From contig CAYGYG010000013.1 in the NCBI GenBank assembly GCA_964354155.1, positions 3,696 to 67,695 on the forward strand: a DNA stretch of 64,000 bases. The letters are read 5' to 3'. A model generated the notes under the pieces. That model saw nothing but the letters and a program-made list of their open reading frames with translations, ran no database searches and was not told the origin of the DNA. The stretch is from an uncultured bacterium. GTDB taxonomy: Bacteria > Hydrothermota > Tepidihabitantia > SM23-42 > CAYGYG01. Below are positions 25,580 through 41,320 of this stretch, piece after piece; the stretch's first letter is position 1, and each line of letters starts with the position of its first letter. The position numbers and the translations under genes are program-made.

Positions 25580-27568
25580 ATGAAGATTTTGTCGCTTGTT
25601 TTCGTCGCTCTGGTTGCTGCCGGCTTCAGCACGCCGCCGCAACTTGATCTGGTGCGCATCGACATCAGCCACCCCGACCAGGTCAAAGAACTGGATCGGG
25701 CCGGAATCATCATCAACTCGGTCGCCCCGGATCACGTCGTCGCCGAGATCGAGCGGTCCGAGTATTTGTCCCTGGCGGCGCGTGGTTTCCACGCCAAGCT
25801 GCTCCAGGAGAATATCTCCGGGGTATACTACGCAAACAGCCTGACCAAGTCGCCGTTCGGCCGGTATCTCACCTATACCGAATTCCGGGATTCGATGATC
25901 ACGATCGCCGGCAACAATCCCGGCATATGTCGTCTCGAGACGCTGGGCACGACGGCCCAGGCCCGTCTTATTCTAAGCATGAAGATCTCAGACAACGCCG
26001 CGGTCAATGAACAGGAGCCGCCGGTCCATTTCGACGGGGACACGCACGGCGACGAGAAGTGCGGTTGGGCGGCCTGCTGGGAGATGATCAAGTACCTGGT
26101 CAGTCGCTATACCACCGACACCCTGGTCGCCCGGCTGGTCAATACCCGGGAAATCTACATCGCGCCGATGTTCAACCCGGACGGGTTCAATTCCGGCAGC
26201 CGCTACAACTCCCGCACCGTCGATTTGAATCGTAACTGGGGCTGGATGTGGGGCAACGAATCGGCCTGCGGCGCCGACTTCATGAGCGAAAACGAAACCC
26301 GGGCCTTCATGGCCCATTTCTGGCGCCACCCGTTCGCGACCTTCATCTCCTATCACGGCGGCACGTTGATGATTTCCGAGCCCTGGTCCTACACCGACCG
26401 GATGGTCCTGCCCGAGAGCGTGCTCATTCACCATCTTTCGAGAGGCTACCGTTCCTACACCAACTATCCCTATGGTCAGGGTTCGATCGTCATGTATCTC
26501 ATCAACGGCTCTTCCAAAGACTACAACTACGGCTGCGGCGGCGAGATGGGATGGTCGGTTGAAGTCTGCATGACCAAGACCCCGCCGGCCGATTCGATCG
26601 ACCGGATCTTCGCGCGCGACGGCCCGGCGATGCGCTACATCATGAACAAGGCCGGGTTCGGCATTCACGGCCGGGTCACCGATTCGGTTACCGGTGCGCC
26701 GCTCTATGCCCACATCATGGTCGGCCCGACCAACGTCATTTCTCACAGCTGTCCGACCAACGGCGACTATCACCGGTTCTACCTGCCGGGCACCTACAGC
26801 CTTACCGTCCGGGCGCCGGGCTACGACCCCAAGACGATCAGCAACGTCGTTGTACCGAACAATACGCGTGACTCGTCGGTCACGGTCAACGTCGGGCTGA
26901 GACGCAATACCACTGCCCGGGTCTATGCGACGCGGGTCATCGGCAGCCAGTGGGTGACGACCACGTCGAATCTTACTTATCCGTACCGCGCCGTAGGTCC
27001 GCAGGACGGCCAAGCCTACCAGCTGGATGCGACCAAGTGGATCGTGCTGGCGATGGACGTGCCGATCAAGAACGTCTCGGGCAATGACTTCACGGTCTAC
27101 CGGTCAAGCGGCACCGGCACGGCGACGGTGCGCATCGGCAATTCCTGGTCCGGGTCGTGGTCCATCGCCGGTACCGCCAACGCCGCCGCCACATCATTCG
27201 ACATCGCCTCAACCGGACTCGATTCGGCGCGTTACGTCCGGCTGGAAGCGGCAAGCCAGTTCATGCTCGACGCGATCGAGGCATCGCAGCGGGTCGGCGT
27301 CGCGGAAGAACCGAGGGTCGTGCCACCGGTCATCGACGATTTCCGCATCTGGCCCAACGTAATGCGGAGCGGCTCGAAAGTTAACTTCGCCAACCCGCTG
27401 GCCAAGCCCGCCGAAGTGACCATCTACAATGCCGCGGGCCGTAAGGTCTGTGCTTTGACCATCCCGGTCCGTGTCTCGAGCGTGCCCTTTGCGGACCTTG
27501 CCGCCGGCGTCTATTTCGTCGGGCTTGAGGGCGCCGCCGCGCGGGCGCGAATCACCGTCGTACAGTAG
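25580..27568 (+). CDS. Exported M14 zinc carboxypeptidase with regulatory domain and T9SS-like C-terminal tail
   Basis: Signal peptide, HGDE, NPDG..R.N...DLNRN, SYHGG, WSVE catalytic Glu, LAAGVYFV tail. Confidence 0.88.
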   Translation: MKILSLVFVALVAAGFSTPPQLDLVRIDISHPDQVKELDRAGIIINSVAPDHVVAEIERSEYLSLAARGFHAKLLQENISGVYYANSLTKSPFGRYLTYTEFRDSMITIAGNNPGICRLETLGTTAQARLILSMKISDNAAVNEQEPPVHFDGDTHGDEKCGWAACWEMIKYLVSRYTTDTLVARLVNTREIYIAPMFNPDGFNSGSRYNSRTVDLNRNWGWMWGNESACGADFMSENETRAFMAHFWRHPFATFISYHGGTLMISEPWSYTDRMVLPESVLIHHLSRGYRSYTNYPYGQGSIVMYLINGSSKDYNYGCGGEMGWSVEVCMTKTPPADSIDRIFARDGPAMRYIMNKAGFGIHGRVTDSVTGAPLYAHIMVGPTNVISHSCPTNGDYHRFYLPGTYSLTVRAPGYDPKTISNVVVPNNTRDSSVTVNVGLRRNTTARVYATRVIGSQWVTTTSNLTYPYRAVGPQDGQAYQLDATKWIVLAMDVPIKNVSGNDFTVYRSSGTGTATVRIGNSWSGSWSIAGTANAAATSFDIASTGLDSARYVRLEAASQFMLDAIEASQRVGVAEEPRVVPPVIDDFRIWPNVMRSGSKVNFANPLAKPAEVTIYNAAGRKVCALTIPVRVSSVPFADLAAGVYFVGLEGAAARARITVVQ

Positions 27569-27597
27569 GGCCTGCGAAGGAGCGAAATAGCAGCGCT

Positions 27598-27652
27598 GAC
27601 CAGATGACCAGAAGATCAGTGGGAAGGGTACCGGCAGATCAGGTGATCAGTG
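27598..27652 (-). repeat. Left inverted arm (CTGAT family) of four-helix-bundle cassette 1
   Basis: Reverse complement aligns ungapped to 28072-28126 at about 36/55 positions (hand count). Confidence 0.7.
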
Positions 27653-28062
27653 TGAAAGATGGGGGAGGATCAGAATCACAGTATAATGCTATCGCAGGTT
27701 TTGAGAGACTGTGGGTGTGGCAGAAATCACACCGGCTCATGCTTGAAGTCCACTCTCTCTGCAAGAAACTGCCCAGGATTGAGAGGTTCAAGATCAGAGA
27801 CCAGTTGGAGCGTTCCTCATGCTCGGTTCCGGACAACATCGCTGAAGGCCACACGAGCTACTACTATCAGGACAAGATCAAGAGCTTCAATATCGCCCGA
27901 AAGGAAGCAGGGGAAACCCAGAATCATATTAGGAGTCTGCAGGGCAAGGGTTACCTACCAGCCGGGGATGCTGACGATTTTGTTAAGCGTTATGAAGAGG
28001 TCATCAAAGGGATCAACGGATATATCAATTGGGTGAAAGAGAAGAAGGGCGCCCGAAAATGA
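27652..28062 (+). CDS. Four helix bundle protein (23S rRNA intervening-sequence protein/bAvd-like family)
   Basis: FE.L.VWQKSH, FKIRDQLERS..SVPDNIAEG, IARKEAGET. GTG start at 27652 after AGGTGA. Confidence 0.88.
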   Translation: MKDGGGSESQYNAIAGFERLWVWQKSHRLMLEVHSLCKKLPRIERFKIRDQLERSSCSVPDNIAEGHTSYYYQDKIKSFNIARKEAGETQNHIRSLQGKGYLPAGDADDFVKRYEEVIKGINGYINWVKEKKGARK

Positions 28063-28071
28063 ACGACACGC

Positions 28072-28272
28072 GTCTGATGTGCTGATATGCCGATATCCTG
28101 GCTACTGATATTCGGATATCCTGATATGCTGCCTTCGGCATCGATTACAGTGATGGCAGGACTGAGATCCCTCGCTGCCCTCGGGACGATGTAAACATCG
28201 GATTACGATGATTCATTGCTGATTTCTGCTGTGCTGATACCCTGCCCACTGATGCCCGGATGCGCTGATATG
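28072..28272 (+). repeat. Right arm of cassette 1 (28072-28126) and a second direct CTGAT-family copy (about 28222-28272)
   Basis: CTGAT/CCGAT/CGGAT recur at 8-12-nt spacing. An inverted ATCACTGTAATC unit lies at 28143-28155. Confidence 0.7.
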
Positions 28273-28295
28273 CTTGAACTAATGAGGTCAACCCC

Positions 28296-29654
28296 ATGAT
28301 CGCTCTCTTGATCGTCTTTGCGTTCACGCCTTACTACTTTGTTCACAACAGCGATCCGCAGATCGGGCGATCCCCGGAAGGCGAGCCCAACCTGGATTCA
28401 GCCGTTGCCCAGATCGGGCGGATGCAGCCGGCGCCGAGCTTCATATACGTGGCCGGTGACATCTCCGACAACCCGCTGGATTCGGCCATCGTCCATGACC
28501 AGTGGACGCGTGCTCGGACGCGTTTCAACCGGCTCTCGATTCCTAAGTACTACGCGGCCGGCAACAACGACCTCGGGTATCCGAGCGAACTGGAAAGCGT
28601 GCCCAGGATGCTATATTGGTATCGCAACTTCTGGGGGCCGGACTGGTACTCCTTTGACCGCGACTCCTGCCACTACATCGTCCTCAACTCGACCCTGCTG
28701 GACGTGGCCAGCGGCCATGTCCACTACCCGGCGTCGCTGGCCCAGGACAGTTTCTTGCGCAGCGACATCCAGTCCATCCAGGGCCGGCGCTGCAAGCATC
28801 TCTTTTTTCTCTACCATTTCCCGACTTACATCAGCACACCGGACGAAGCCAATCAGACCGGCAATGTCCACCGGCCGCGTCGCGACACCATCCTCAAGTA
28901 CGTGCGCAACAACGGCTTCAGCGCGATTCTTGCCGGCCACATCCACGCCGACGGCCAGACTCTATATCGTTCCGCGGTGCTCCAGGCCGGCCTGGCCACT
29001 TGCACCGGGCCCCTGTCCAGCACCGGCTACCGGGTTGTGAAAGCATTCCATAATGGGATAGAGACCTTCACCGTCTTTCTCTCGGCCCCGTTCGACAGCG
29101 TGCCTATGGTCAATATCGTCACGCCCACGGCCAGCCCTGAGACCGTCGTGGTCAACCAGACGGTTTCGTTTCAAGCGGGCGTCGATACGGTGCGCTTCCC
29201 GGATTGGCGCGGGTTGTCCTTCCGGTGGAATTTCGGTGACGGCGACAGCTCGTGGGTACGGACCACGTCACATGTCTACCGGGATACCGGCAACTATCTC
29301 GTTGCGTTCACCGGTTACCAAGCGCCGCGCAAGGCGGCCAATTATCATCTCAGGATTCGCGTGAATCCGCCGTCGCTCGTTGGAGGTGCCAGGCCCGAAT
29401 TGCGGGACGGACGTACGGTGATCTTGAGCGCGGTGCTTGCCGGCGCGGTCGCGTTTGAAACGGCTGAACCGGGAAGAGTCACGCTTGCGCTCTACTCCAG
29501 CGACGGACGAAAAGCCGCGATTCTCATGGACCGCTATCTTGAAGCTGGTCGGCACCGGGCGGCGGTTCCATCCCGGCTGGCGGCCGGCGTCTATTTCGTC
29601 GAGCTTGCCACACCCTTTGAACGAGCAGTGAAGAAGACAATTCACCTGCGTTAA
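28296..29654 (+). CDS. Exported calcineurin-like metallophosphoesterase with PKD domain and C-terminal sorting-like tail
   Basis: SDPQ, GDISD, GNND, HFP and GHIH motifs; W.FGDG PKD; LAAGVYFV tail. Confidence 0.8.
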   Translation: MIALLIVFAFTPYYFVHNSDPQIGRSPEGEPNLDSAVAQIGRMQPAPSFIYVAGDISDNPLDSAIVHDQWTRARTRFNRLSIPKYYAAGNNDLGYPSELESVPRMLYWYRNFWGPDWYSFDRDSCHYIVLNSTLLDVASGHVHYPASLAQDSFLRSDIQSIQGRRCKHLFFLYHFPTYISTPDEANQTGNVHRPRRDTILKYVRNNGFSAILAGHIHADGQTLYRSAVLQAGLATCTGPLSSTGYRVVKAFHNGIETFTVFLSAPFDSVPMVNIVTPTASPETVVVNQTVSFQAGVDTVRFPDWRGLSFRWNFGDGDSSWVRTTSHVYRDTGNYLVAFTGYQAPRKAANYHLRIRVNPPSLVGGARPELRDGRTVILSAVLAGAVAFETAEPGRVTLALYSSDGRKAAILMDRYLEAGRHRAAVPSRLAAGVYFVELATPFERAVKKTIHLR

Positions 29655-29695
29655 GATCGGGAAAACGCGGGACGCAAGGACGCCACGGACATCTT

Positions 29696-30454
29696 ATGCT
29701 TAATGCGAGGCCATGCGGCACTGCAATCATCGCCATACTGAGCCTGCTCGCAGCTCTGCCGGTTTGCGCGTCCGAAACCGCCTGCCTCGGCTTGTCGTTG
29801 ACCATGCTCTTGATCCTGCGAAATCGTCGACGCAAGGCCGTCCGACGGATTGTCGCGTCAGGGTTCTCCCGGCGCCTGGTGTGGAAGGCCGCCTACCGTT
29901 TCGGCCGCAACCTGAGCGCGATGCTCAAGAATCGTGTCCACGACTGTGTCTCGGAGAGAGAGGTCGTCATTCACGGCGAAGACCAGATTTCAGCCTTGGC
30001 CCAAGGCGGCGTGGCCGTCGGTTACCATTTCGGTCCCTGGGAGCTATTGCCCGGAATTTTGGCCCGGCGCGGCCTGCGGATGGGTGTCGTGACCAATTTC
30101 TACGCCGCCCGGCCGATTGATCAGTTCCTACGCCGGTTCCGCGCACGCGACCGGGTGGAGCTGTTCTATGCCAACGGGCCGGAGAACGAAGTCCGCCGGA
30201 TGATCGAGTTCATAAGATCGGGCGGCACGGTCGGGGCGCTGATCGACGGCGATACGTTCGACCAGAAGTACCCGGTTCTCAAGCGTATCATCGATCGATT
30301 CGGGTTTCGTGTCGTCCCGGTTTTCGGCTATCTAAAACATGGGAAAATGCATGTGTTTGTCGGTCACCCGCTGACCGACGCTCTAAGGTATTCACCTGAG
30401 AATTACTTCTGGTTCTATGCCAGTCATGAATCCATGCTCCAAGCCGAGTCGTAA
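29696..30454 (+). CDS. Lysophospholipid/lipid A acyltransferase (LpxL-like)
   Basis: HFGPWE (Hx4D/E), G.L.D motif, N-terminal membrane anchor. Start uncertain. Confidence 0.7.
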   Translation: MLNARPCGTAIIAILSLLAALPVCASETACLGLSLTMLLILRNRRRKAVRRIVASGFSRRLVWKAAYRFGRNLSAMLKNRVHDCVSEREVVIHGEDQISALAQGGVAVGYHFGPWELLPGILARRGLRMGVVTNFYAARPIDQFLRRFRARDRVELFYANGPENEVRRMIEFIRSGGTVGALIDGDTFDQKYPVLKRIIDRFGFRVVPVFGYLKHGKMHVFVGHPLTDALRYSPENYFWFYASHESMLQAES

Positions 30455-30552
30455 CTCCCGCTTCCATTTCCTTGTCGTAACGCCCGATAAAACATAAGTT
30501 CCGTACTCATCTGGAATCCGACCTAAGGTGTTGTACTCATTGAGGTTGCCTG

Positions 30553-30580
30553 TTGACATTGAAGTCAGGTCAGTTATAAT
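30553..30580 (+). promoter_or_regulatory. Promoter TTGACA-N16-TATAAT with no downstream ORF for about 660 nt
   Basis: Perfect hexamers. Confidence 0.65.
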
Positions 30581-30610
30581 ACCAATCCCAGTTGTGTTAA
30601 TATGAGTAAT

Positions 30611-30644
30611 TCAGGTGAATACCTGATATCCATTATTCACCTGA
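30611..30644. promoter_or_regulatory. Perfect 11-bp inverted repeat (TCAGGTGAATA-N12-TATTCACCTGA), operator-like
   Basis: Seen directly, 30 nt downstream of the -10 box. Confidence 0.5.
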
Positions 30645-31148
30645 CGGATAGAATGTAATTTGAGAGCTTGTAGGGCTTTGTTCCATGCGTGGAGGCGTGG
30701 ACTCGCTCTTAAGGTAAATGGGGGAATCCCCAGCAGGTCCGCGCAATAATCAAATACGTGCGTTCTTTGCCGCACTCGGTTCTTAGCGGTCTATCACCGG
30801 CACCGATTGATGTTATCGCTGTGATCGGTTTTCTCGTCATCACTGTGATCAGCGGTTCTATCACTGTAATCGAACGCGCAGCGTGTGTAACCGAGGCGGG
30901 CGAAGCCTGCTGAAGCAGGGAACAGGATACAGGGCACAGCAATCAGGGAACCAGCATTGAGCGTACAGAGTAGCGAGTAGAGAGAAGCGACAGAAAACGC
31001 AATCCGTTTCGTCTATCGTCCTAGTGAGCGTAGCGAACGATCGTCCTTAGTCCGTCGCCCGTATCTCCCGATCTTCCGACCGCTGATACCCCGTCCACTG
31101 ACCATCTGATGTCCTGATCCGCTCACCTTCGGCGTTCATCACTGCCTG

Positions 31149-31176
31149 CCCCGTTAGACTGGAAGTCTAAACGGGG
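31149..31176 (+). repeat. 28-bp hairpin repeat, copy 3
   Basis: Identical to copy 1; lies directly upstream of the hicBA promoter (TTGACG-N16-TATAAT, 31210-31237). Confidence 0.9.
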
Positions 31177-31243
31177 TAATCGACGGTGCCCTGCACCCAG
31201 AAGATGGGCTTGACGTGGTCCTCTCAAGGAGTATAATGCAATC

Positions 31244-31471
31244 ATGAAGAGACGTAAGACGGAATACACCGTGATCATGCATCCGGCCGAAGAGGGCGGT
31301 TACTGGGTCGAAGTGCCGGCGCTCCCCGGATGTTATTCGCAGGGGGAGAGCGTAGAAGAGGCCCTTGAAGGCATCAAAGAAGCCATTGAGGTGCACCTGA
31401 TTGCCCTGAGAAAACAGGGCAGGAAGGCACCCAAGGACCAGACCCTCGTGCTCAGTCACGTGGAAGTCTAG
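31244..31471 (+). CDS. hicB: HicB family antitoxin (HicB-like N domain), probably leaderless
   Basis: YTVI.HPAEEGGYWVEVPALPGC.SQGES.EEAL..IKEAI. Confidence 0.9.
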   Translation: MKRRKTEYTVIMHPAEEGGYWVEVPALPGCYSQGESVEEALEGIKEAIEVHLIALRKQGRKAPKDQTLVLSHVEV

Positions 31472-31504
31472 GGCCTACTTCCTCCATTGCTTTCCATCTC
31501 TTGA

Positions 31505-31726
31505 ATGGGCAAACAACTCAGAGGACTCAAAGCCAGAGAAGCGATCATAGCTTTCGTGCGGGCTGGCGGAGTTCGGAAACTTGGCAAGGGCAGTCACGTC
31601 AACATTAAGATGCCCAACGGCATGATTATGACAATTCCGGGGAAAGGCGAACTCAAGATCGGCTTGCTGAAAAACGCGATTCATAAAGCAGGTCTGACCG
31701 AAGAGCAATTCGCTCGCCTGCTCTAG
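31505..31726 (+). CDS. hicA: HicA family toxin
   Basis: L.G....E.I.AF...G.....GKGSH...K......TIP....LK.GLL...I..AGL..E.F..LL. Confidence 0.88.
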   Translation: MGKQLRGLKAREAIIAFVRAGGVRKLGKGSHVNIKMPNGMIMTIPGKGELKIGLLKNAIHKAGLTEEQFARLL

Positions 31727-31858
31727 CGGTCACCCGATCTTCCGACCGCTTATACCCCTCCCACTGATTCGCTGATCTTCTGATCTACTTGTTTTCTTTT
31801 CACCCTTTACGTTTTCCCCTTCACCTTTAACCATTCACTGACATAATAGGAGGCCTTA

Positions 31859-33529
31859 ATGCGTCTTTCACTTCTCTTCTTTCTTGTGCTTGCCGTGTCG
31901 GCTACAGCCGACTTCAACCGTACATCGGAAGTCATCGACGTGCCCACCGGACATACGCTGGGGTTGGGGCAGCTAAGAGCCGGCGCCGTCGGCGGCCTGG
32001 CCCTGAGTCTGTCTGAAGACACCCATGATGCGGACATCGACTTTGCCGGGGCTATCGGCCTGGGTAAGGGCTTCGAAATCTCGACCTCCATCTTCAGTCT
32101 TGATAATGTTGTCGTACTGGGGATGTCCAAGCAGATCCTGGCCCGCAAGAACACCTGGCTTGCCGTCGGCGTGCACGACCTGAGCTATTCGTGGAGCGTT
32201 TCGTCGGTCGGCGGCGGGGCTGACCAGGAGGGCTGGGACGATGATGTTCAGTACGAGTACGGCGAGTCGATCAAGCCGGCCGAAGCTTTTTCATTGTTCT
32301 TGACCGGGACTAAGAGCTTTAATACCGGCGGCGATCTTACCCTTGGTTTGGGCCGGGGACGGTTTGTCGGCTACGGACCCAACAGCAAGTACTTCAACAC
32401 CGAGTTTTACACCGACGACAAGAGCGACTGGGCAATCGGCCTGTTCATCGGGTACAAACTTCCGATCACCAGGTCGCTTGATCTGCTCTTTGATCTCGAC
32501 GGCAGGGATGCGAATCTCGGCCTTTGCCTGCACACGAAGCGTTTCGAAGTGGCGGTCGCGGGAGTGAAACTCGAACAATTGTGGGCTGACGGCTTAAGTT
32601 CGTGGGTCTCGGCTGGTCTGTTCTACAAGACGGGTCTTGTCCCGGAAAAACCAAAGGACGGGATCATCGCCGGCACGGTCACCGACCGCGAAACCGGCAA
32701 ACCGGTTGCGGCCGTGGTCGCCATCGAAAATTCTGGGATACCCGGCAGCGGCACCGACCCTTTGACCGGATACTACACCTTTGAAGGTTTGCCGCCGGCA
32801 ACCTATAATCTTGTCGGCACGGCACAAGGCTACGAGAGTTCGACCCGAATGGTGGTGGTCAAGGCCGGCCAACTGACCCGGGTCGATTTTTCGCTGGTCC
32901 GGGCCAAACCCATCGCCGGCCAGCTTACCGGGAGTGTCCTGGACAGGAAGACCAGTGCACCGTTGATTGCCGAACTGAGTCTTTTTGCGGTAGCCACAGG
33001 TGTCGTGGCCGGTCAACCGGTTGGGCAGACCAAGTCGGCTCAGACCGGAGCCTATGCATTTGCCGACGTCCCGGCCGGCAACTACCAATTGCGCGCCGAG
33101 GCGATGGACTACGCTGACCAGGTCATCAATTTGACGATTTCTGCCGGTGCCCGGACCACCCAGGATATCCATATGTTAAAGGTGGGCATGGTCATCACTT
33201 TGCAGGGAATAAAGTTTGACTTTAACAAAGCGACGATAAAGCCTGAATCTGCGCCTGTTCTTGATGAAGCTGCTGCCATGCTCGAGAACAATCCGGACAT
33301 CAAAGTCGAGATCCAGGGGCACACCGACAACGTCGGCAGTCGGACTTACAATCTGCGGCTATCGCAAGCGCGAGCCCAGGCGGTCGTCGACTATCTTGTG
33401 GCCAAGCAGGGGATTAGTACCGCGCGGCTCTCGGCCCGGGGCTATGGTTTTTCGATGCCCGTCGCCAGCAACGCGACGGTAGACGGCCGCGCCCAAAACC
33501 GCCGAGTCGAATTCGTAATCGTGAAATAG
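31859..33529 (+). CDS. OmpA-family outer-membrane protein: N-terminal beta-barrel-like region, two carboxypeptidase-regulatory-like domains, OmpA C-domain
   Basis: Signal peptide; I.FDFNKA.I, GHTD..G....N..LSQARA..V, NRRVEF. Confidence 0.9.
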   Translation: MRLSLLFFLVLAVSATADFNRTSEVIDVPTGHTLGLGQLRAGAVGGLALSLSEDTHDADIDFAGAIGLGKGFEISTSIFSLDNVVVLGMSKQILARKNTWLAVGVHDLSYSWSVSSVGGGADQEGWDDDVQYEYGESIKPAEAFSLFLTGTKSFNTGGDLTLGLGRGRFVGYGPNSKYFNTEFYTDDKSDWAIGLFIGYKLPITRSLDLLFDLDGRDANLGLCLHTKRFEVAVAGVKLEQLWADGLSSWVSAGLFYKTGLVPEKPKDGIIAGTVTDRETGKPVAAVVAIENSGIPGSGTDPLTGYYTFEGLPPATYNLVGTAQGYESSTRMVVVKAGQLTRVDFSLVRAKPIAGQLTGSVLDRKTSAPLIAELSLFAVATGVVAGQPVGQTKSAQTGAYAFADVPAGNYQLRAEAMDYADQVINLTISAGARTTQDIHMLKVGMVITLQGIKFDFNKATIKPESAPVLDEAAAMLENNPDIKVEIQGHTDNVGSRTYNLRLSQARAQAVVDYLVAKQGISTARLSARGYGFSMPVASNATVDGRAQNRRVEFVIVK

Positions 33530-33587
33530 AAAATGATCCCGGATGCACGATGCAGGATACTCGATAGCCAAGGTAAGGAGATCAGCA

Positions 33588-33968
33588 ATGACACGATACA
33601 CTGACCTGGAAATCTACAAACTAGGACACAATCTGGCCGTTGAAGTCCACAAGATGACCCTAGCGGATTTGCCAAAGTTCGAGATGTTCGAGGAGGGCGG
33701 TCAGGTCAGGCGTTCCTCAAAGTCCATCGTCAGCAACATCGTTGAGGGCTATGGCCGGCGGCGCTACAAGCAGGAGTTCATTCAGTTTCTCACCTATGCA
33801 ATGGCTTCGTGTGATGAAACGAAAGAGCACCTGCAGTTGCTATGGGATACGGATTCACTCAAGGACAGAACGCGATTTGTGCACTTTTCTGAGGGGTATG
33901 AGAAGCTGGGCGCCAAACTCAACAGTTTCATAGCTTCCGTCATAAAAGGCCATCTCTCACCTAGGTAG
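33588..33968 (+). CDS. Four helix bundle protein
   Basis: [45 protein letters not shown]. Confidence 0.9.
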
Positions 33969-34190
33969 CGCTTCTTGTAGCTTCTCCTGTGTCCATCCTG
34001 TATCTTGTGTCGTTCATCTTGTTTCATGCCTTGCATATCGTGTATCGAGTATCCTGGATCTTATCTCGTGTCATTCTCGTCGTTCCTGCTTCGCATCATG
34101 TATCCTGGATCCCATGCCGTTCTCTTTTATCGTGTATCCTGTATCGAGTATCATTCTTTTCCATCGTGTATCATGTATCGTGGATCAGGC
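33969..34190 (+). repeat. Heptamer (TATCNTG-like) periodic tract; an inverted block lies upstream of the gene at 33541-33567
   Basis: tatcgtg-tatcgag-tatcctg-gatc blocks. Upstream ggatgca-cgatgca-ggatact-cgatag is the reverse-complement pattern. Confidence 0.8.
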
Positions 34191-34266
34191 CTTAAACCCG
34201 TTGTTGACAATTCTCGCCCTATGGATACACTTCATGTAGGAGATGACCTAATAACCTGTTCTTCAC

Positions 34267-35352
34267 ATGCGATCTAAAATCCTTCTAATCAATCCGGACG
34301 AAGCGGAGATTTCTCAGCTCCAGCATCTGCTGGAGACTGAGGGTCATAAGGTCAAGAAAGTCTACTCGGGCGAGGCGGCTCGCCGCGTCTGCGAGGACGA
34401 TACTTACGACCTGGTTCTTGTCTCCAGCACCCTGAAGGACACCAATGTCGGCGAGCTTATCCACAAACTGCGCCAGCCCTGTCCCGAGACCGAGTTTATC
34501 ATCATTACGAACCTGGCCCAATTCCAGAATCTGTCCGGCGTGAGCCACTATGATGTCGCCGGCTATCTCATTCCGCCGATCACCGAGGACAAGGTGCGGG
34601 AGGTTTCCCAGCGGGCGATCCGTCAGCACGAACTGCTCCGGGAGAACCGGCGTCTGATCGACGCCATCACCCAGGCCAAGAAGGAGTGGGAGGCGACGGT
34701 CGACGCCATCGAAGACCCGATCTTCATCGTCGATGCCGACCACAAAATCGTCCGCGCCAACCTCGCGCTGTTCCGGATGCTCAACAAGGGCGTTTCCCAG
34801 GTCATCGGCCAGAAGTGCAGTATCCTGCTCCACATGTCCGATGCCGCGCCGTCGGATTGTGTCATGGAAACGGTCAAGCGCGAGGCCGGCCCGATCACGT
34901 CCGACCTTACCTGCCGGGGTTTGGGCGACGGCAAGTACATCTGCGCCGCCTACCCGCAGATATTCGTCGGGGGATTCGGCACGGTTCATGTCCTGCGTGA
35001 TGCCCGGAAAGTCATCGGTGACGACCGCTACCGCCAGACCTTCGAGAAGAACCCGGTGCCGTCCCTGCTTCTCGAATACGACACCAGAAAGATTATCGAC
35101 GCAAATGCCAAAGCCCGCAACCTGCTCGGCTACAAGAAGGACGAGCTGATCAACGTAGCGTTTGACCATTTTCTGACCAGTGAGGACCGGGACAGCATCA
35201 TCATGGCCATGCCCAAGAATTTCAACGGCATGATTCACGAGGTGAAAGCCCAGGTCCTCAACCGCGAGAATCTCAAGCTCCAGGTCCGGCTCAGCTTCGG
35301 TATTGTTGAATTCGACAAGAAGATGGTCCTTCAAGTCGTCATCATCCCGTAG
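34267..35352 (+). CDS. Response-regulator receiver plus two PAS domains, no output domain
   Basis: REC-like N-terminus, KKEWEATVDAI.DPI...D....I.RAN PAS, second PAS (IDAN..A..LLGY...EL). Promoter TTGACA-N16-TACACT at 34204-34231. Confidence 0.8.
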   Translation: MRSKILLINPDEAEISQLQHLLETEGHKVKKVYSGEAARRVCEDDTYDLVLVSSTLKDTNVGELIHKLRQPCPETEFIIITNLAQFQNLSGVSHYDVAGYLIPPITEDKVREVSQRAIRQHELLRENRRLIDAITQAKKEWEATVDAIEDPIFIVDADHKIVRANLALFRMLNKGVSQVIGQKCSILLHMSDAAPSDCVMETVKREAGPITSDLTCRGLGDGKYICAAYPQIFVGGFGTVHVLRDARKVIGDDRYRQTFEKNPVPSLLLEYDTRKIIDANAKARNLLGYKKDELINVAFDHFLTSEDRDSIIMAMPKNFNGMIHEVKAQVLNRENLKLQVRLSFGIVEFDKKMVLQVVIIP

Positions 35353-35481
35353 GTTCCTCTTTTTTCTTCACCTTTTTCTGCGCCTGGCGCTTTGTCAAAT
35401 CCGCAATCCAAAATCTTAACGGTGCTTTATCGCTGTAATCGTGTGTTCTTATCACTGTAATCTACGCGTAGCGACGCGGAG

Positions 35482-35580
35482 CGTGGCAATCCCATTCTCT
35501 GTGTGCATCCTTATTCTCTCTACTTGCTACTCGCTACTTATTACAGCATCCGTTTGCATCCGCTCCCATCCGTTTGAATC
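35482..35580 (+). repeat. ~100-bp near-identical direct repeat, copy 1 (copy 2 at 37857-37962)
   Basis: cgtggcaatcccattctctgtgtgcatccttattctctctactt...actcgctacttattacagcatccg...catccgtttgaatc is shared. Confidence 0.85.
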
Positions 35581-35592
35581 TTTGACTTTCTA

Positions 35593-35799
35593 ATGATGAA
35601 ACGCCTCTGGTGTAATAAATTCCGCTCACGCCGCGATGCCGACCGCTTTGATCAGGTCTACTACGAGCGGATGACGTCAAAGCAGCGGCTGGAGATTGTG
35701 CAGATGTTGAGGGATTCAGTCTTCATGCTGCCTGATATATCCAGACATGAAAACCGAAAAAGACTACGAAGAACTATTAAGGTTGTTCAACAAGCATAA
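35593..35799 (+). CDS. Small hypothetical protein, partner of the downstream nucleotidyltransferase
   Basis: AD.FD..YY..MT..QRLE pattern; overlaps the next gene. Confidence 0.6.
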   Translation: MMKRLWCNKFRSRRDADRFDQVYYERMTSKQRLEIVQMLRDSVFMLPDISRHENRKRLRRTIKVVQQA

Positions 35800-36214
35800 G
35801 GTCAAGTACTGCATCGTCGGAGCCTACGCGGTTGCCTACTATGCCCGGCCGAGATATACGAAGGACCTCGATATTTTCATTGATCCGGTGTGGGACAACG
35901 CGGCACGGCTCGTGAAAGCGTTGGAAGAGTTCGGATTCAAGGGTTTGAACCTACGGCCGGAAGACTTCATGGTCAAGGGAAGCGTGGTTCAGCTTGGTTA
36001 TGAACCGGTTAGGGTTGATATTGTAAGCTCGATCAGCGGCTGTTCTTTCGGCACGGTCTGGAAGAGCCGGGAGGTTGGCCGATACGGGAAAGAAAAGGTC
36101 TTCTTCATCGGTCTGGCCCAGTTGATCAAGAACAAACGCGCCGCGCAGCGCGCGCAGGACAAGGCGGACCTTGAGCTTCTCGCCAAAGTGCGTGCCCGGC
36201 GGCGACCCCGTTAG
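35747..36214 (+). CDS. Nucleotidyltransferase-fold protein (DUF6036-like)
   Basis: VGAYAV..Y..PRYTKDLDI, NK.A..R.QD.ADL. Confidence 0.8.
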   Translation: MKTEKDYEELLRLFNKHKVKYCIVGAYAVAYYARPRYTKDLDIFIDPVWDNAARLVKALEEFGFKGLNLRPEDFMVKGSVVQLGYEPVRVDIVSSISGCSFGTVWKSREVGRYGKEKVFFIGLAQLIKNKRAAQRAQDKADLELLAKVRARRRPR

Positions 36215-36233
36215 ACTGGAAGTCTAAACGGGG
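36206..36233 (+). repeat. 28-bp hairpin repeat, copy 4 (supplies the TAG stop of the nucleotidyltransferase)
   Basis: Identical to copy 1; the ORF ends in CCG-CGT-TAG-like overlap within the repeat (stop at 36212-36214). Confidence 0.9.
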
Positions 36234-36353
36234 TAATCGACGGTGCTCCGCACCGAACGATACTAACGCTCATCGCTGTCCCGTACGGGACGATCTCGTC
36301 AACGCTGTTGATTTTCGTATGATTTGATGTATAATCTACGCAATGGAGGCCTC

Positions 36354-36563
36354 ATGCGTACCACATTACGCAGTGTAACAATAAAAGGCGACAAGCCACT
36401 AGTTGTCATTTCTGCCGAGCAATACGAGAGGATGATGGAAACGATCGAACTACTTTCTATCAACCCTGATTTGGCAGATGACCTAAAGGCAGAAAGAAGA
36501 AGAATGGACAAGGGTGAGTATATCACCCTTAGTGATTATAAGAAGAAATACCGCCGACACTGA
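36354..36563 (+). CDS. Phd/YefM-like antitoxin
   Basis: VVISAEQYERMMETIELLS.NP. GGAGG RBS; promoter TTGATT-N16-TATAAT at 36308-36335. Confidence 0.8.
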   Translation: MRTTLRSVTIKGDKPLVVISAEQYERMMETIELLSINPDLADDLKAERRRMDKGEYITLSDYKKKYRRH

Positions 36564-36832
36564 TGTATCAGGTTCGTTTATCGCACTCCGCTGAGAGGTT
36601 CTTGGATCATATGCACCGATCAAACCGTAGCCTATTCGGCAGACTCATGCAATCCTTGGATAAGGTATCAAAAGATCCCTTTAGCGGGAAGGCGTTAATG
36701 GGGAATCTAAAGGGCCACTATTCGTACCGGGTCGGTGATTACCGAATACTGCTGGAAATCGATAAGGCGAAGCACATCGTCTATGTCGAGAAGATTGAAC
36801 ACCGCAGTGCTGTTTACCAGAGGCACTCTTAG
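36563..36832 (+). CDS. RelE/ParE family toxin
   Basis: MYQV.L...A..FL, P..GK.L.GNL.G.YS.RVGDYRIL..I, I.HRS.VY. Confidence 0.9.
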   Translation: MYQVRLSHSAERFLDHMHRSNRSLFGRLMQSLDKVSKDPFSGKALMGNLKGHYSYRVGDYRILLEIDKAKHIVYVEKIEHRSAVYQRHS

Positions 36833-37116
36833 CGGTCTAAGGTTCTAACGCTTTTAATGTGCTCAACGCTCCTATCACTGTAATCGTGTTTTCTTATCAC
36901 CGTAATCGACGATGCTTCATCGCTGTAATCGATGTGCCTCCGGCACAAACGTTCTAACGATATTAACGTTATAACCCTCTTCATCACTGTAATCAGCCTT
37001 TCTCATCGCTGTAATCGATTCCGCTTCAGCGGAAACCAAATAAACTTGATAAACCAGATAAACCAAGAGAACGTTCCTAACGCTATTAACGATATTAACG
37101 GCAGATGCTTCATCGT
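36833..37116. repeat. Mosaic spacer: five ATCA/GCTGTAATC units, TTCCGCTTCAGCGGAA hairpin, AAACCA tract, TAACG tracts
   Basis: Units at 36872, 36894, 36917, 36981 and 37003; hairpin at 37019-37034. Confidence 0.8.
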
Positions 37117-37458
37117 ATGAAAATCATCAGTGCGCCAACCAACAAAAGTATCATTCTCGCCGAGTACAATCGTTTCTTCAAGACGATGATCAAGGCGGTT
37201 GTGGACATTGACAAGGAAGTGATGGCGCTCGATGCCGAACTGCACGCCGATCTGGAAGCTGTTCTCGTCGGCGAGGGAAGTCGGCAGGAAAACTTATGGG
37301 GCATAAACCTGTACCTGGGGAAACCGCGGGAAGAGTGGATCGAGTACACGGCGCTCGTCAACATCCGGCCCTCGATGGACAACCGGGGCATGGAAGTCGA
37401 GAACCCCGATATTCGCAAGCGGTTGCAGGAAGTCGTGGGCAAGCTGATCACGGAATGA
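37117..37458 (+). CDS. DUF5674-like protein
   Basis: KAVVDI....MA.DAELHADLE..L...GS.QENLWGINLY, NIRP...NR. Confidence 0.75.
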   Translation: MKIISAPTNKSIILAEYNRFFKTMIKAVVDIDKEVMALDAELHADLEAVLVGEGSRQENLWGINLYLGKPREEWIEYTALVNIRPSMDNRGMEVENPDIRKRLQEVVGKLITE

Positions 37459-37459
37459 T

Positions 37460-37810
37460 ATGTATCGGCTGAAATTCCACACGAACCTGGCTTCGCGTTG
37501 GTCTGAATTCCCGCCAAGCACGCAGCTGCTGATGGTGGCAAGCGAGCTGAGCCGTGCCAAGAACATGACGATCCGCCATGACCATGCCGAGGCAACGAAC
37601 GCCCTTGAACGTGCCTTTGAACTGCTCGACATGACCATAAGCCGGGCGCGGACCATTGGGATGCTGACCGAGCTTCACCGTTTCCGCGAAGTACTCGCCG
37701 ATCTCTACTCAGGCGGGGAGTATCAAGCCGAGAGGGTCCAGAAGTTGATTGAAGTGCTCGTGTCACTCGACAAAGACAGCTGCCGCGTCCTCGGCGCCGT
37801 AGCTTCCTAG
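37460..37810 (+). CDS. Hypothetical helical protein coupled to the DUF5674-like gene
   Basis: RW.......QL..V.SEL.RA, LERAFELLD.T, EL.R.RE.L. Confidence 0.7.
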   Translation: MYRLKFHTNLASRWSEFPPSTQLLMVASELSRAKNMTIRHDHAEATNALERAFELLDMTISRARTIGMLTELHRFREVLADLYSGGEYQAERVQKLIEVLVSLDKDSCRVLGAVAS

Positions 37811-38052
37811 CTCGATAGCTTAATCGCCTGATTGCTTAATTTGCCAGTAGCGCGGACGTGGCAATCCCATTCTCTGTGTGCATCCTTATTCTCTCTACTT
37901 ACCACTCTCTACTCGCTACTTATTACAGCATCCGACTGCATCCGCTCTCATCCGTTTGAATCGATGTCCCTCTGGGACAATCGCTCTCATCCCCCGAAAA
38001 TTGCGCTTGCCAATCTTGATGATATGCATATAGTTATAAATAGGAGAATTCG

Positions 38053-38250
38053 ATGACCAAAGTAAAAGAGATCAATCATTATACGCTTGAAGAACTAAGT
38101 GATCTTATCGAGCAGAAGATTCTTGAGATCCTTGGCGATCCGGATTGCGGGTTGGAGTTACGGGAGGATTTTAAGCGGGAGATACTCAGGAGAATCCGTC
38201 AGAAACATAGAAGGATTCCCCACGAAGAGGTTCTGAGAAAGTTTGGCTAA
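38053..38250 (+). CDS. Putative antitoxin
   Basis: 66 codons; overlaps the RelE gene; promoter TTGCCA-N16-TATAGT at 38007-38034; RBS AGGAG. Confidence 0.7.
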   Translation: MTKVKEINHYTLEELSDLIEQKILEILGDPDCGLELREDFKREILRRIRQKHRRIPHEEVLRKFG

Positions 38251-38509
38251 GATCGAGTGGGCTGACTCGGCGATTGCCGACCTTGCAAGGATTGACCGGC
38301 CAATTGCTCAACGCATAGTGAGAAAAGCTACCTGGTTAGGAAGCAACTTTGAAAACATTACCCCTGATCCGTTATCAAAGGACATGAAGGGTCTTTTCAA
38401 ACTCCGGGTCGGTGATTGGCGTATCATTTATACGCTGGAAGACGAGCGAATAACAATTCAATTCGTTGGTCATCGAAGTGACATCTACAAGCGTTTGCAG
38501 CGCTCCTAA
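38243..38509 (+). CDS. RelE/ParE family toxin
   Basis: IEW...A..DL..ID, L.....GLFKLRVGDWRIIY, VGHRSDIY. Confidence 0.9.
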   Translation: MAKIEWADSAIADLARIDRPIAQRIVRKATWLGSNFENITPDPLSKDMKGLFKLRVGDWRIIYTLEDERITIQFVGHRSDIYKRLQRS

Positions 38510-38743
38510 CGCTCAAAGTGATCTGAACGCTCCTATCACCGTAATCAGCCGTTTCATCACTGCGCCGTCGTGTGCGCCCTGAGTATTTCGAGGGGTAATC
38601 GATTCCGCTTCAGCGGAAACCAAACAAACCAAAACCAGATAAACCAGACAAACCAAAATGCCCATTTGACCCCAGGGGACCTTTGACCCCGTAGGTACAT
38701 CTTTCTATAATGAAGAAGAGCAGTAATTTAAGGAGGTGTTCAC

Positions 38744-38968
38744 ATGAAGCAAGTCAAGATTATCGTTGAAAAACATCCCGACGGCTATGTGGCTTATCCC
38801 CTAGGGCTTAAGGGGGTTGTAGTTGGACAAGGAGATACTTACGAAGAGGCTCTTTCAAATGTGAAGTCAGCCATCCGTTTTCATATTGAGACTTTTGGGA
38901 GGGAGGTCCTTGAGCTTGAGCCGCCGATCCTTGAGGCATTCGTTGCTGAGGCTGGAGTCGAAGTTTGA
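38744..38968 (+). CDS. hicB: HicB family antitoxin
   Basis: IIVEKH.DGYVAYP.GL.G..VGQGDTYEEAL.NVK.AI.FH. Confidence 0.85.
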   Translation: MKQVKIIVEKHPDGYVAYPLGLKGVVVGQGDTYEEALSNVKSAIRFHIETFGREVLELEPPILEAFVAEAGVEV

Positions 38969-39207
38969 TGAATAAGTTCCCTGTTGATGCCCCAAAGCCA
39001 AAGATAATCAAGGCATTGGAGGTTCTTGGTTTTCGCGTTGTGCGTGAAAAAGAGCATATTTCCATGGTGCGTGAGAATCCTGATGGAAGCAAGACTCCCT
39101 TGACCATGCCTAATCACCCATAGATAAAGGCCTCTACTCTAAGAACGATTTGCACTCAAGCGGGTATCTCAAGGAATGAATTCTTGGAAGCCTATAAGAA
39201 AGCATAG
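38968..39207 (+). pseudogene. hicA: HicA family toxin with in-frame TAG at 39121-39123
   Basis: MNKFPVDAPK..IIKALE.LGF..VREKEHISM...TMPNHP*IKASTLRTICTQAGISR.EFL. Absent from the supplied ORF track. Confidence 0.8.
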
Positions 39208-39382
39208 ATATGGCAACGGCCGATAACAGCGCGGTTGTACTTAGTTTCCCTCACATCCCGCGGCCTTGCCGCTCAAATGTAGAATGTAGAGCTGAAAGTC
39301 CCGTCCTCAGGGAATTTGACCCCAGGTTCTCCTTGACAGAAGGACAAAAAGTGAATAATATATCCTTCGTATAAGGACAAAA

Positions 39383-40669
39383 ATGGTTAGCGCTGAGACG
39401 ATAAAGGAAATCATTAGATCAAACGAAGATTTCATCCTAAGGGAAATAGGCGCGGTTGTCGCACGAGAGGGTCTGTGCCTGCCTTCGGGGACCCGCAAAG
39501 TAGGGGTGATCTACGGTGTTCGGCGCAGCGGCAAGACCTTCCTGCTCTACGATCTCTTCAAAAAGCATGCCACCGGTGCTCTCTATATCGATTTTGAGGA
39601 CGAAAGGATCAGGGACATACGTCTGGGGGATCTGGAAAGGATCAAAGACGCCTTCTTCGAGCTGAAGCCTCAGCTTTTGGGCAAAGATAAATGCCTATTC
39701 CTGTTTGATGAGATTCAAAATGTGCCCGGCTGGGAGAAATTCGCGCGGCGGATGGTTGAAAAGGAACGAATCGGTATATTCGTGGCTGGTTCGTCTTCAA
39801 AGATCACGCCCCGGCAACTCCACACGTCTCTGCGGGGCCGGGCATGGTCCATCGCTCTTTATCCGTTTTCTTTCCCGGAATTCTTGAGATTGAAAGGTAT
39901 TGATCCATCCCGACCGATCTATGGTAAAGGCCGCGTTCTTGTAAAAAGCTGGTTCATGCAGTACTTAAAGTGGGGCGGATTCCCCGAGATTGGCTTTTCG
40001 GAATCGGATTTCGAAAGGACCAAAATCCTCGGCGAATACCTAGATGCAATGTTTTTCAAGGATCTAGTTGAGCGATTCAACATCACCAATATCCATCTCC
40101 TTGAGGCCCTCAAGGAGAGTCTGTTTTCGTCTTTTTCGGGGAAATTCTCACTTGCCTCTTTCTACAAGCAATACAAAGGCAAGTTCCCGTTTTCCAAAGA
40201 CATGTTGTACTCCTATTATCGATACTTCACGGAGAGCATGTTGGTTTCCGAGGTCAGACTGTATTCCCCGTCGGCATACCGGCGAATGAGAAATCCACCT
40301 AAGGTCTACCTCGTGGATCCGGGCCTGGGGCGTAAGCTGGGGACACAGGACCTCGGTCGTCGGCTTGAAAATCTGGTCTTTATCGAATTGAAAAGGAAGG
40401 GATACGAACTTCACTATTTCGAAGAGCGGAATGAGTGTGACTTTGTGGTGAAAGAAGATGCTAATACAAGGCGGGCGATTCAAGTCTCCTGGGAATTGAA
40501 CCAAGACAACCGCGAACGAGAAATAAACGGTCTCTGTCAGTGCTGCCGTTCACTCGGCCTGAAACATGGTACAATCATAACGTCTGACCAGGAATCCGAG
40601 GAGCGAATTGACGGTATTGCTGTGAGGGCGATTCCCTTCTGGAAATGGGTAACACAAGCAAGTCCATAG
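39383..40669 (+). CDS. AAA_14 family ATP-binding protein with C-terminal DUF4143 (nuclease-like) domain
   Basis: GVRRSGKT Walker A, FDEIQ Walker B, GGFPE, K.Y.VDPG, EN.VF.EL, ECDF. Confidence 0.9.
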   Translation: MVSAETIKEIIRSNEDFILREIGAVVAREGLCLPSGTRKVGVIYGVRRSGKTFLLYDLFKKHATGALYIDFEDERIRDIRLGDLERIKDAFFELKPQLLGKDKCLFLFDEIQNVPGWEKFARRMVEKERIGIFVAGSSSKITPRQLHTSLRGRAWSIALYPFSFPEFLRLKGIDPSRPIYGKGRVLVKSWFMQYLKWGGFPEIGFSESDFERTKILGEYLDAMFFKDLVERFNITNIHLLEALKESLFSSFSGKFSLASFYKQYKGKFPFSKDMLYSYYRYFTESMLVSEVRLYSPSAYRRMRNPPKVYLVDPGLGRKLGTQDLGRRLENLVFIELKRKGYELHYFEERNECDFVVKEDANTRRAIQVSWELNQDNREREINGLCQCCRSLGLKHGTIITSDQESEERIDGIAVRAIPFWKWVTQASP

Positions 40670-40722
40670 TTGACGCTATTAATCCATCCCGCCTGTCACG
40701 TGTGATCACCTATTACATCGTG

Positions 40723-40800
40723 GTTAGACTGGAAGTCTAAACGGGGTAATCGATTCCGCTTCAGCGGAAACCAAATAAACTTGATAAACCAGATGAACCA
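40723..40800 (+). repeat. 5'-truncated 28-bp hairpin followed by TTCCGCTTCAGCGGAA and AAACCA tract
   Basis: gttagactggaagtctaaacggggtaatcgattccgcttcagcggaaacc; same order as at 42125-42205. Confidence 0.85.
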
Positions 40801-40821
40801 AGAGGACGTTCTAACGAAATC

Positions 40822-41235
40822 ATGAAACTCCAATCCTTCCAGGACCTTAAAGTGTGGCAGTTGTCTTCAGCATGTTCAAATGATATATCACAGTTGATCA
40901 AAACCTTCCCCCGTGCTGAACGTTTTGAACTCGCTGATGATCTTTTGCGTGCAGCGCGATCTGTACCAGCTAACATAAGCGAAGGATGGGGGAGATTGTT
41001 CCCAAAAGAGAAAATATCATTCTACAATATTTCTTACGGTTCAGCCGAAGAGTGCTCTAACCACTTAATCGAAGCGCTCAACAATGGCTATATAGATAAT
41101 GAAACTAACAGTAGATATCAAAAGAGAATACACGTTATTTCTGTCAAACTTACCAATCTCATTATTTCCACGCGCAAGCGTATCAATTCTTCAGTCCCGC
41201 AGGGACGTGTCTCCAGTCTGCAAAAGCAGCCGTGA
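40822..41235 (+). CDS. Four helix bundle protein
   Basis: SFQDLKVWQ, FP..E.F.L...L.RAARSVPANISEG.GR. Confidence 0.9.
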   Translation: MKLQSFQDLKVWQLSSACSNDISQLIKTFPRAERFELADDLLRAARSVPANISEGWGRLFPKEKISFYNISYGSAEECSNHLIEALNNGYIDNETNSRYQKRIHVISVKLTNLIISTRKRINSSVPQGRVSSLQKQP

Positions 41236-41320
41236 CTTCAGGAGTGAAACGACATGATTACAGTCCGAAGGACGTATTCTGTTCAGGCGTAGCCGTGACT
41301 CCAGGAGTGAAACGACGTGA
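41228..41320 (+). repeat. Two 30-bp direct repeats (28/30 identical, 63-nt period) interleaved with short tetraloop hairpins
   Basis: agccgtgacttcaggagtgaaacgacatga (41228-41257) and agccgtgactccaggagtgaaacgacgtga (41291-41320). Confidence 0.75.

Follow-up and report, generated by a model that had tools for sequence, protein, structure and literature searches.

The PF05635 protein family has thousands of members and two solved structures, and we know of no function for it outside the Avd proteins of diversity-generating retroelements (DGRs). Nor, to our knowledge, is there an explanation for the heptamer arrays that have been described in bacteria for years. Here we analyse a stretch of 64,000 nucleotides from an uncultured bacterium (contig CAYGYG010000013.1, hereafter the window; coordinates prefixed with L refer to loci elsewhere), in which a PF05635 gene at 33588–33968 lies between two opposed arrays of a heptameric repeat. 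We refer to this gene with its arrays as cassette 2, and to a comparable arrangement around another PF05635 gene of the window as cassette 1. A literature search by family names found no paper on PF05635 genes with clade-specific arrays outside ribosomal RNA (rRNA).

The closest described systems are the intervening sequences (IVSs) of 23S rRNA that carry an open reading frame, as in Coxiella burnetii, where the protein is S23p, and in Leptospira (PMC4990558). The Coxiella IVS has a 28-bp stem that RNase III cuts in its middle and tandem heptamers before the S23p reading frame; heptamer copy number varies between strains, and the element has been proposed to be mobile (PMC4990558). Cassette 2 resembles these IVSs in its PF05635/S23p family gene, in its stem-capable terminal inverted repeats, which enclose the reading frame and are perfectly complementary over the inner 12 bp, and in the heptamers beside the gene. 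It differs in location, being placed not in an rRNA helix but between two protein-coding genes, an OmpA-family gene and a response-regulator gene, with no Rfam match within 27000–45000. In addition, the IVS stem is near-perfect over 28 bp, whereas the arms here are arrays of a degenerate unit, the downstream one in five blocks, and RNase III cleavage, demonstrated for the IVSs, is for this locus proposed by analogy. Since the IVS features are present but the rRNA location is not, the cassette would work like an IVS without being one.

REPIN-RAYT systems (PMC3116915, PMC3337134) are also composed of a gene with its own cognate inverted repeats and show clade-specific pairing, as found here, and the gene-less copies of the repeat structure known from those systems have a counterpart in the gene-less arrays of related strains and loci, although the 64-kb window has no ATC..G run away from the 33588–33968 gene. 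RAYTs, however, are homologues of HUH/Y1 transposases and REPs are palindromes of 20–40 nt, whereas the protein studied here is a four-helix bundle without a catalytic motif or transposase domain, and its repeats are tandem units of 7–8 nt. Intergenic heptanucleotide arrays have been reported as GGGAATC in Xanthomonas, as GGGGAYT in Nostoc and as four or five tandem heptanucleotides in Geobacter (PMC4692102, PMC2700814). They share with the present arrays a period of 7, a preference for four or five units, a position between co-oriented genes and frequent convergent inverted pairs, and a shift of phase turns the Xanthomonas unit into ATCGGGA, in line with the ATC..G unit described below. Those papers link no protein-coding gene to the arrays and propose G-quadruplexes or regulator sites, whereas here the arrays are tied to one protein clade. 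The Avd protein of DGRs (4DWL; PMC10053308) is a pentamer-forming, nucleic-acid-binding accessory protein with a similar four-helix-bundle fold, but the present locus has neither a reverse transcriptase nor template and variable repeats, and sequence similarity is below the family threshold. As in insertion sequences and miniature inverted-repeat transposable elements, terminal inverted repeats are present, but a target-site duplication and an adjacent transposase are not. Integron gene cassettes are a poor match too, for each cassette has flanking repeats of its own unit and period, and there is neither a common attC-like site nor an adjoining integrase.

A four-helix-bundle gene between inverted heptamer arrays

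The components of cassette 2 are as follows.

33588–33968, plus strand: gene for a four-helix-bundle protein of 126 amino acids from the 23S rRNA IVS protein family (PF05635, TIGR02436, AlphaFold2 model and Foldseek)
33531–33566, minus strand: upstream arm, five heptamers reading ATC..G on that strand (ATCGAGT, ATCCTGC, ATCGTGC, ATCCGGG, ATCATTT)
33995–34190, plus strand: downstream arrays, 16 ATC..G units in five blocks (33995–34022, 34037–34060, 34095–34111, 34128–34152 and 34163–34190) with T/C-rich spacers between the blocks
33555–33566, plus strand: inner left terminal inverted repeat GGATACTCGATA, the perfect complement of 34043–34054
34043–34054, plus strand: inner right terminal inverted repeat TATCGAGTATCC, the perfect 12-bp partner of GGATACTCGATA

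The first-pass annotation, made from the sequence, had proposed that this is the second four-helix-bundle gene with inverted heptamer arms in the window, that its upstream arm is the reverse complement of the downstream heptamer blocks and that the downstream side is expanded to about 200 bp. Each of these points was borne out. The product matches PF05635 (1.8e-24; 86.4 bits, cut-off 33.8) and TIGR02436, four helix bundle protein (2.5e-25; 88.8 bits, cut-off 24). PF05635 was the sole Pfam family above threshold, and no homology to HUH/Y1 transposases was found. An AlphaFold2 model built from a 21-sequence alignment (predicted local distance difference test 91.5) has four long helices, and its top Foldseek matches, the family's solved structures 2RLD and 2GSC (template modelling (TM) score 0.75–0.90), point to a fold of that type; the next match was the DGR protein Avd (4DWL, TMq 0.64–0.69). 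A profile search with the protein returned 2GSC (6e-15) and 2RLD (1e-10), both of which were deposited as five chains.

The upstream arm, whose first unit begins 2 nt after the stop codon of the OmpA-like gene, contains four exact ATC..G units on the minus strand, or five with one mismatch. On the downstream side, Tandem Repeats Finder reports a period of 7 with the consensus TATCGTG at 34128–34186. The arms pair over 18 nt at 94% identity (33549–33566 with 34043–34060), over 25 nt at 84% (33542–33566 with 34128–34152) and over 11 nt at 100% (33556–33566 with 34142–34152, where TATCGAGTATC recurs). When the upstream flank was aligned in inverted orientation with the downstream flank, the top score was 15.5, compared to 8.0 ± 1.2 (maximum 13.5) in 300 dinucleotide shuffles (z 6.2), and the control alignment in direct orientation scored 7.0. 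The 64-kb window contains four in-phase runs of at least three exact ATC..G units; all of them are at the 33588–33968 gene and in the expected orientation, while shuffles expect 0.01.

Conservation of the arrays across phyla

A scan of one genome per species yielded 80 loci whose proteins are 51–67% identical to that of cassette 2. They span about 12 phyla, including Desulfobacterota, Nitrospirota, Planctomycetota, Omnitrophota, Verrucomicrobiota, Bacteroidota, Ignavibacteriota and Chloroflexota. With significance set at z of at least 4, inverted arms were found in 59 of the 76 loci with usable flanks, nearly all with a period of 7. On the coding strand the downstream unit is of the ATC..G type and the upstream arm is its reverse complement. 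Random orientation, which would have spoken against a pairing of each protein variant with its own motif, was not seen: the 80 loci hold 643 units in the sense expected and 149 in antisense, and the density of antisense units in the flanks equals that within coding sequences. Maximal in-phase runs of four or five units are the commonest both upstream and downstream (range 1–18). The closest relatives, found by exact look-up, are L084 (74% identical), L086 (71%) and L087 (70%), all of which carry ATCnTG. Relatives that are 60–74% identical occupy unrelated contexts across about 12 phyla, among them central-metabolism operons, toxin-antitoxin islands and polysaccharide clusters.

The repeat unit follows the protein clade

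Each locus received a label for the unit that prevails in it (ATC..G, divided into T, A or C at position 5; AAC..G; GAC..G; ACC..G; or none), and the labels were placed on a maximum-likelihood tree of 81 proteins and shuffled 200 times. The labels require 19 changes on the protein tree against a shuffled mean of 43.0, and none of the 200 shuffles was as low. The window protein groups with L001–L004 and L006 (Shimodaira-Hasegawa-like approximate likelihood ratio test 90), all of which have ATCnTG as the window does. Comparing flank motif with protein phylogeny was a check set beforehand, and the motif proved not to be independent of clade; the earlier suggestion that each protein variant is paired with its own motif thus gains support, also from the different unit carried by the relatives of cassette 1.

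The host taxon does not account for this pattern, since Chitinophagaceae hold three protein clades with three units (ATCCAG, ATCCCG and AACCAG) and two loci of one metagenome-assembled genome (MAG; L039 and L065) differ in motif. The ATCnTG subtype, in turn, is common to WOR-3, Nitrospirota and Desulfobacterota. Linkage alone is not an explanation either, because silent sites are saturated (fourfold degenerate sites of the window gene and its closest relatives are 12–32% identical) yet unit positions 1–3, 5 and 6 are kept at 78–87% or more, with T at position 5 in 85% of 75 units. The gene and its arrays behave as one heritable, transferable unit across phyla, with a repeat sequence that is under constraint although silent sites are saturated and an array orientation that is fixed relative to the gene. 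The pairing of protein and motif appears as co-inheritance together with conservation beyond neutral decay.

One residue may go with one unit position. At the residue that corresponds to position 72 of the window protein, where helix 3 starts (alignment column 82), twelve proteins have His, and 11 of these belong to loci with ATCCCG-type arrays. Nine of the 11 are labelled position-5 C, and the other two, L038 and L039, have ATCCCG units but received no label under the count rule; His72 is missing from only one position-5 C locus. In the window, codon 72 (33801–33803) is Met and the arrays are ATCnTG. Monophyly of the His72 rows is rejected (approximately unbiased test, p 0.0037), for a group that was named after seeing the data and that amounts to 3–4 independent contrasts. 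We therefore put forward as a hypothesis that His72 goes with C at unit position 5. A single-residue code for ATC versus AAC unit heads was also considered and was dropped, as no clean alignment column emerged.

Filled and empty alleles in near-identical strains

Metagenome contigs from two sediment runs, X2 and X3, which stem from different samples and studies, represent a strain with other contigs that match the window at about 97% identity over this region. In these contigs position 33553 is joined to 34163 via 26 letters, which align to 34054–34086. The principal segment that this strain lacks is the following.

33554–34053, plus strand: 500-nt segment with the inner arms and the gene, missing in the ~97%-identical strain; placement ambiguous by 1 nt

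Within the segment, whose left breakpoint is at 33553/33554, lie the gene with its ribosome-binding site, the inner units of the arms and the two downstream blocks nearest the gene; it is bounded by the perfect 12-bp inverted repeat GGATACTCGATA/TATCGAGTATCC, as insertion sequences are by terminal inverted repeats. The same strain also lacks 34070–34078 and 34087–34160. Near-identical strains differ by the gain or loss of a gene-bearing segment whose ends form a perfect 12-bp inverted repeat. In the 113-nt gene-less allele the outer arms persist as a hairpin (−22.4 kcal/mol), made up of the outer part of the upstream arm, 26 nt of loop and the final downstream block. That a perfect inner repeat is nested in less perfect outer arms would fit the view that the gene entered a hairpin already built from this unit. 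We also asked whether the 2-nt offset between the breakpoints in the stem might be a mark left by RNase III; this idea was dropped, since RNase III cuts have the opposite polarity and the junction can be placed only to within 1–2 nt. For cassette 1, read depth in X2 and X3 falls over the gene, and no joint was recovered. Three further runs, X5–X7, do not span the junction of cassette 2; a search for RNA runs returned none with this sequence, and the runs that matched the relative L080 gave low-coverage contigs with no informative signal.

At the orthologous locus L081, where the OmpA-like protein is 76% identical and the downstream gene is conserved, the spacer of 818 nt (L081:1336–2153) contains no four-helix-bundle gene or remnant of one. 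Its arrays (ATCAG-type, GGGACGA / GTCTC and CATCCGN) are unrelated to those of the window at this junction. The GATCAG-type array of L081 is 81% identical over 42 nt to the upstream arm of cassette 1.

A further junction of this kind is seen in WOR-3 relatives. In L084, the closest protein relative, from a WOR-3 bacterium, the cassette (1788–2263) lies between a citrate-synthase-like and an aconitase-family gene, and three relatives share this operon (aconitase 85% identical). The same junction holds an unrelated PF05635 gene with CCAAGNN / NNCTTGG arms in one of them (L092:977–1500) and gene-less arrays only in the others (L093:1302–1500, 199 nt; L094:1431–1500, 70 nt). Thus, with different cassettes or bare arrays in four WOR-3 relatives, junctions of co-oriented genes in this group of genomes are occupied repeatedly, each cassette having its own unit. 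The gene-less arrays at this junction include CAAATGNN.

Cassette 1 and the other paralogs of the window

The window holds four PF05635 genes, at about 27.7, 33.6, 40.8 and 43.4 kb, with a mutual identity of 27–41%. The first of them lies in cassette 1.

27597–28270, plus strand: cassette 1, a PF05635 gene preceded by GATCAG-type units and followed by CTGAT(ATG) / CTGATATG, period 8 (inverted arms z 6.3)

Its layout is like that of cassette 2 while motif and period differ (8 versus 7), as had been noted from the sequence before. Four relatives of cassette 1 (72–75% identity; WOR-3, Planctomycetes and others) all carry ATCAG upstream and CTGAT downstream with a period of 8. They hold 53 ATCAG/CTGAT units in sense and none in antisense, with ATC..G at background, and loci of the cassette 2 type hold two CTGAT units in sense and three in antisense. 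The paralog at 40822–41235 forms a third clade with L086b (60% identity), and the two have common flanks, AAACCAAAT-type upstream and TTACAG..GTGAAACG downstream.

Several further repeats were noted around these paralogs. Units of AAACCA(A/G)AT precede both the 40822–41235 paralog and its relative in L086 (40768–41348 and L086:4170–4930), and the downstream repeat of this paralog in the window is a 63-nt tandem at 41228–41348. Arrays of the AAACCAGAT type also occur at 37033–37065, 38617–38657 and 42174–42203. A CTGAT-type sequence of about 50 nt (..CTGATACCCCNNCCCACTGAT..) is present three times in one orientation (28200–28270, 31068–31126 and 31736–31790), after cassette 1 and on either side of a hicBA module.

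In cassette 1 (27604–27715) and its four relatives (L088–L091:1501–1600) the upstream ATCAG array is in frame with an ATG. Gene callers lengthen cassette-1-type proteins by 15–35 residues (to 136–152 aa); the conserved core begins ..AGFERLWVWQK, and a TATAAT lies at 27682–27687. In L089 (452–1911) a cassette-1-type gene stands directly 3' of an OmpA/CarboxypepD_reg gene, the C-terminal 253 residues of whose product are 40% identical to the OmpA-like protein of the window; the neighbour is of the kind found at cassette 2, the cassette beside it of the other type.

A proposed mechanism and its alternatives

On balance we lean towards a joint reading in which cassette 2 is an IVS-type four-helix-bundle cassette outside rRNA whose arrays are bound by its own protein, whose transcript is processed by RNase III and which inserts into hairpins. 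Within it, we consider it more likely that protein-cognate arrays are passed on together with the gene, and less likely that RNase III and insertion act as proposed. The cassette would consist of one small gene for a member of the Avd-like, pentamer-forming PF05635 family and two opposed arrays of the clade's own repeat (ATCnTGN, period 7), which are putative binding sites of that protein. We attribute the constraint on the unit to the cassette's own protein because it is the only factor that co-varies with the unit. A ring might engage about five units, in which case the typical runs of four to five would match its five subunits. Where transcription continues from the OmpA-like gene through the cassette, the arms, whose complementarity at the motif level is about 85%, may fold the cassette into a stem-loop, which RNase III would cut as in the IVSs of 23S rRNA; such removal would keep the insert tolerable inside transcription units. 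The cassette might spread by entering hairpins or arrays that are already present at gene junctions, and a host-dependent route is proposed since the cassette encodes no recognisable recombinase.

A number of results weigh against this reading. Clear inverted arms are missing in 17 of the 76 loci and are present in only two of the four paralogs of the window, those at 40822–41235 and 43409–43810 having no significant simple inverted arms (z −0.6 and −0.1). L086 has 22 ATCnTG units downstream (L086:2885–3110) and none upstream, and L087 (2380–3070) carries ATCnTG arrays on both sides of the gene in direct orientation. The clustering of motifs on the protein tree is in part expected from physical linkage alone, and the repeat family of cassette 1 is not private to it, as CTGAT-type copies flank hicBA. 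As to mobility, no recognisable recombinase is encoded, the flanks of the missing segment (..CGATGC and CTGGATC..) show no direct repeat of 2 nt or more that could be a target-site duplication, and the filled and empty alleles differ by three gaps rather than one, so that insertion versus deletion and the exact junctions are not settled. As to the stem, the RNA fold of the whole cassette is no more stable than shuffles (z −1.2) and was therefore dropped as evidence. Across 50 loci, units of the two arms match at variable positions no better than after permutation of the units (0.660 versus 0.664), with just one locus above its own 95th percentile. Position-by-position complementarity of the arms is rejected by this test, and selection for exact stem pairing is thus not seen: the arms are complementary because both are arrays of one degenerate unit in opposite orientation, not because positions are kept in pairs. 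The null permutation and fold results together with L086 and L087 move weight from a selected RNA stem to inverted arrays of recognition sites, although a stem of about 85% complementarity could still form.

The arrays could instead be host elements, such as inter-cistronic insulators, transcript-end protectors, attenuators or structure-forming repeats like GGGAATC, with the gene a cargo that lands in them and whose protein does not recognise them. Gene-less arrays or hairpins at the same junctions (the empty allele, L081, L093 and L094) would be expected from this, as would the heptamer arrays without a linked gene in Xanthomonas, Nostoc and Geobacter (PMC4692102, PMC2700814) and the CTGAT-type repeat around the hicBA module. 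A motif set by the host should track the host, however, whereas it tracks the protein clade within Chitinophagaceae, within one MAG and, for ATCnTG, across WOR-3, Nitrospirota and Desulfobacterota; moreover, ATC..G arrays are absent from the rest of the 64-kb window. We consider this account improbable. We would say the same, and to the same degree, of a stationary small DNA-binding protein that regulates itself or its neighbours, with the arrays as operators and the strain differences as ordinary deletion or recombination in a variable intergenic region. Such a regulator would be well placed, with arrays that adjoin the ribosome-binding site on one side and a promoter-like site of the response-regulator gene on the other, and clade-specific motifs are what a regulator-operator pair should show. 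Against it stand the spread of relatives 60–74% identical over unrelated contexts in about 12 phyla, the different cassettes held by one junction in different relatives, and the perfect inverted repeat that bounds the missing segment; a 7-bp period also seems ill-suited to repeated contacts on one face of B-DNA.

Neutral slippage could have produced arrays that hitch-hike with the gene, the hairpin and the correlation of motif and protein being functionless by-products of linkage or concerted evolution. The wide variation in unit number (1–18 in phase), its variation between Coxiella strains (PMC4990558) and the lack of position-by-position arm complementarity would all agree with this. We regard it as very unlikely in view of unit positions 1–3, 5 and 6, kept at 78–87% or more while fourfold sites are at random-level identity, of an orientation fixed relative to the gene (643 versus 149), and of the same architecture in three separate protein clades with differing units and periods. 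That the gene is an Avd accessory gene of a DGR or its remnant is scarcely credible: the fold does resemble Avd (4DWL, TMq 0.64–0.69) and cassette 1 weakly matches the bAvd model below threshold, but the gene is flanked by genes for an OmpA-family protein and a response regulator and not by one for a reverse transcriptase, the 33588–33968 protein has no match to PF22296 even at E=1, and the flanking repeats are short tandem units rather than a template and variable repeat pair.

Returning to the reading of a cassette with arrays bound by its own protein, the locus ties one PF05635 clade to one repeat unit, a tie that survives cross-phylum transfer and silent-site saturation, and it supplies a filled and an empty allele in near-identical strains with breakpoints at a perfect inverted repeat. 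A protein of unknown function thereby becomes a testable pair of protein and array, for which cassette 1, with another unit and period, offers a specificity control within the window. Were binding specific, the rRNA IVSs that carry reading frames and a large share of intergenic periodic repeats would be explained in the same way. As a speculation to which we give some chance but would not commit ourselves, PF05635 pentamers may be sequence-specific readers of periodic repeats, and a protein clade with its own array a minimal self-propagating element that settles in junction hairpins. The IVSs of 23S rRNA would then descend from insertions into rRNA, and the intergenic heptamer arrays of many bacteria, so far without an explanation, would be gene-less derivatives of the element. 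A residue at the start of helix 3 would help to set the unit (His72 with C at position 5 in the present subfamily).

Genomic setting

The surroundings of the gene contain the following features.

31859–33529, plus strand: upstream neighbour, an OmpA-family outer-membrane protein with CarboxypepD_reg domains (PF00691 4.7e-25, PF13620 7e-23)
33575–33580, plus strand: Shine-Dalgarno-like AAGGAG, read from the sequence, 7 nt 5' of the ATG at 33588
34204–34231, plus strand: promoter-like site for the downstream gene (TTGACA, 16 nt, TACACT; consensus scan only), immediately 3' of the arrays
34267–35352, plus strand: downstream neighbour, a response-regulator receiver and PAS protein (PF00072, PF00989)

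The OmpA-like, four-helix-bundle and response-regulator/PAS genes all lie on the plus strand, and the scan found no terminator-like site between the first and the last of them. No transposase or integrase gene adjoins 33588–33968, and the PADLOC defence-system models gave no match for its product. The four-helix-bundle gene has a G+C content of 0.50 and the downstream arrays one of 0.45, compared to 0.58 in each flanking gene, and its G+C content at third codon positions is 0.64 versus 0.70–0.79 in the neighbours.

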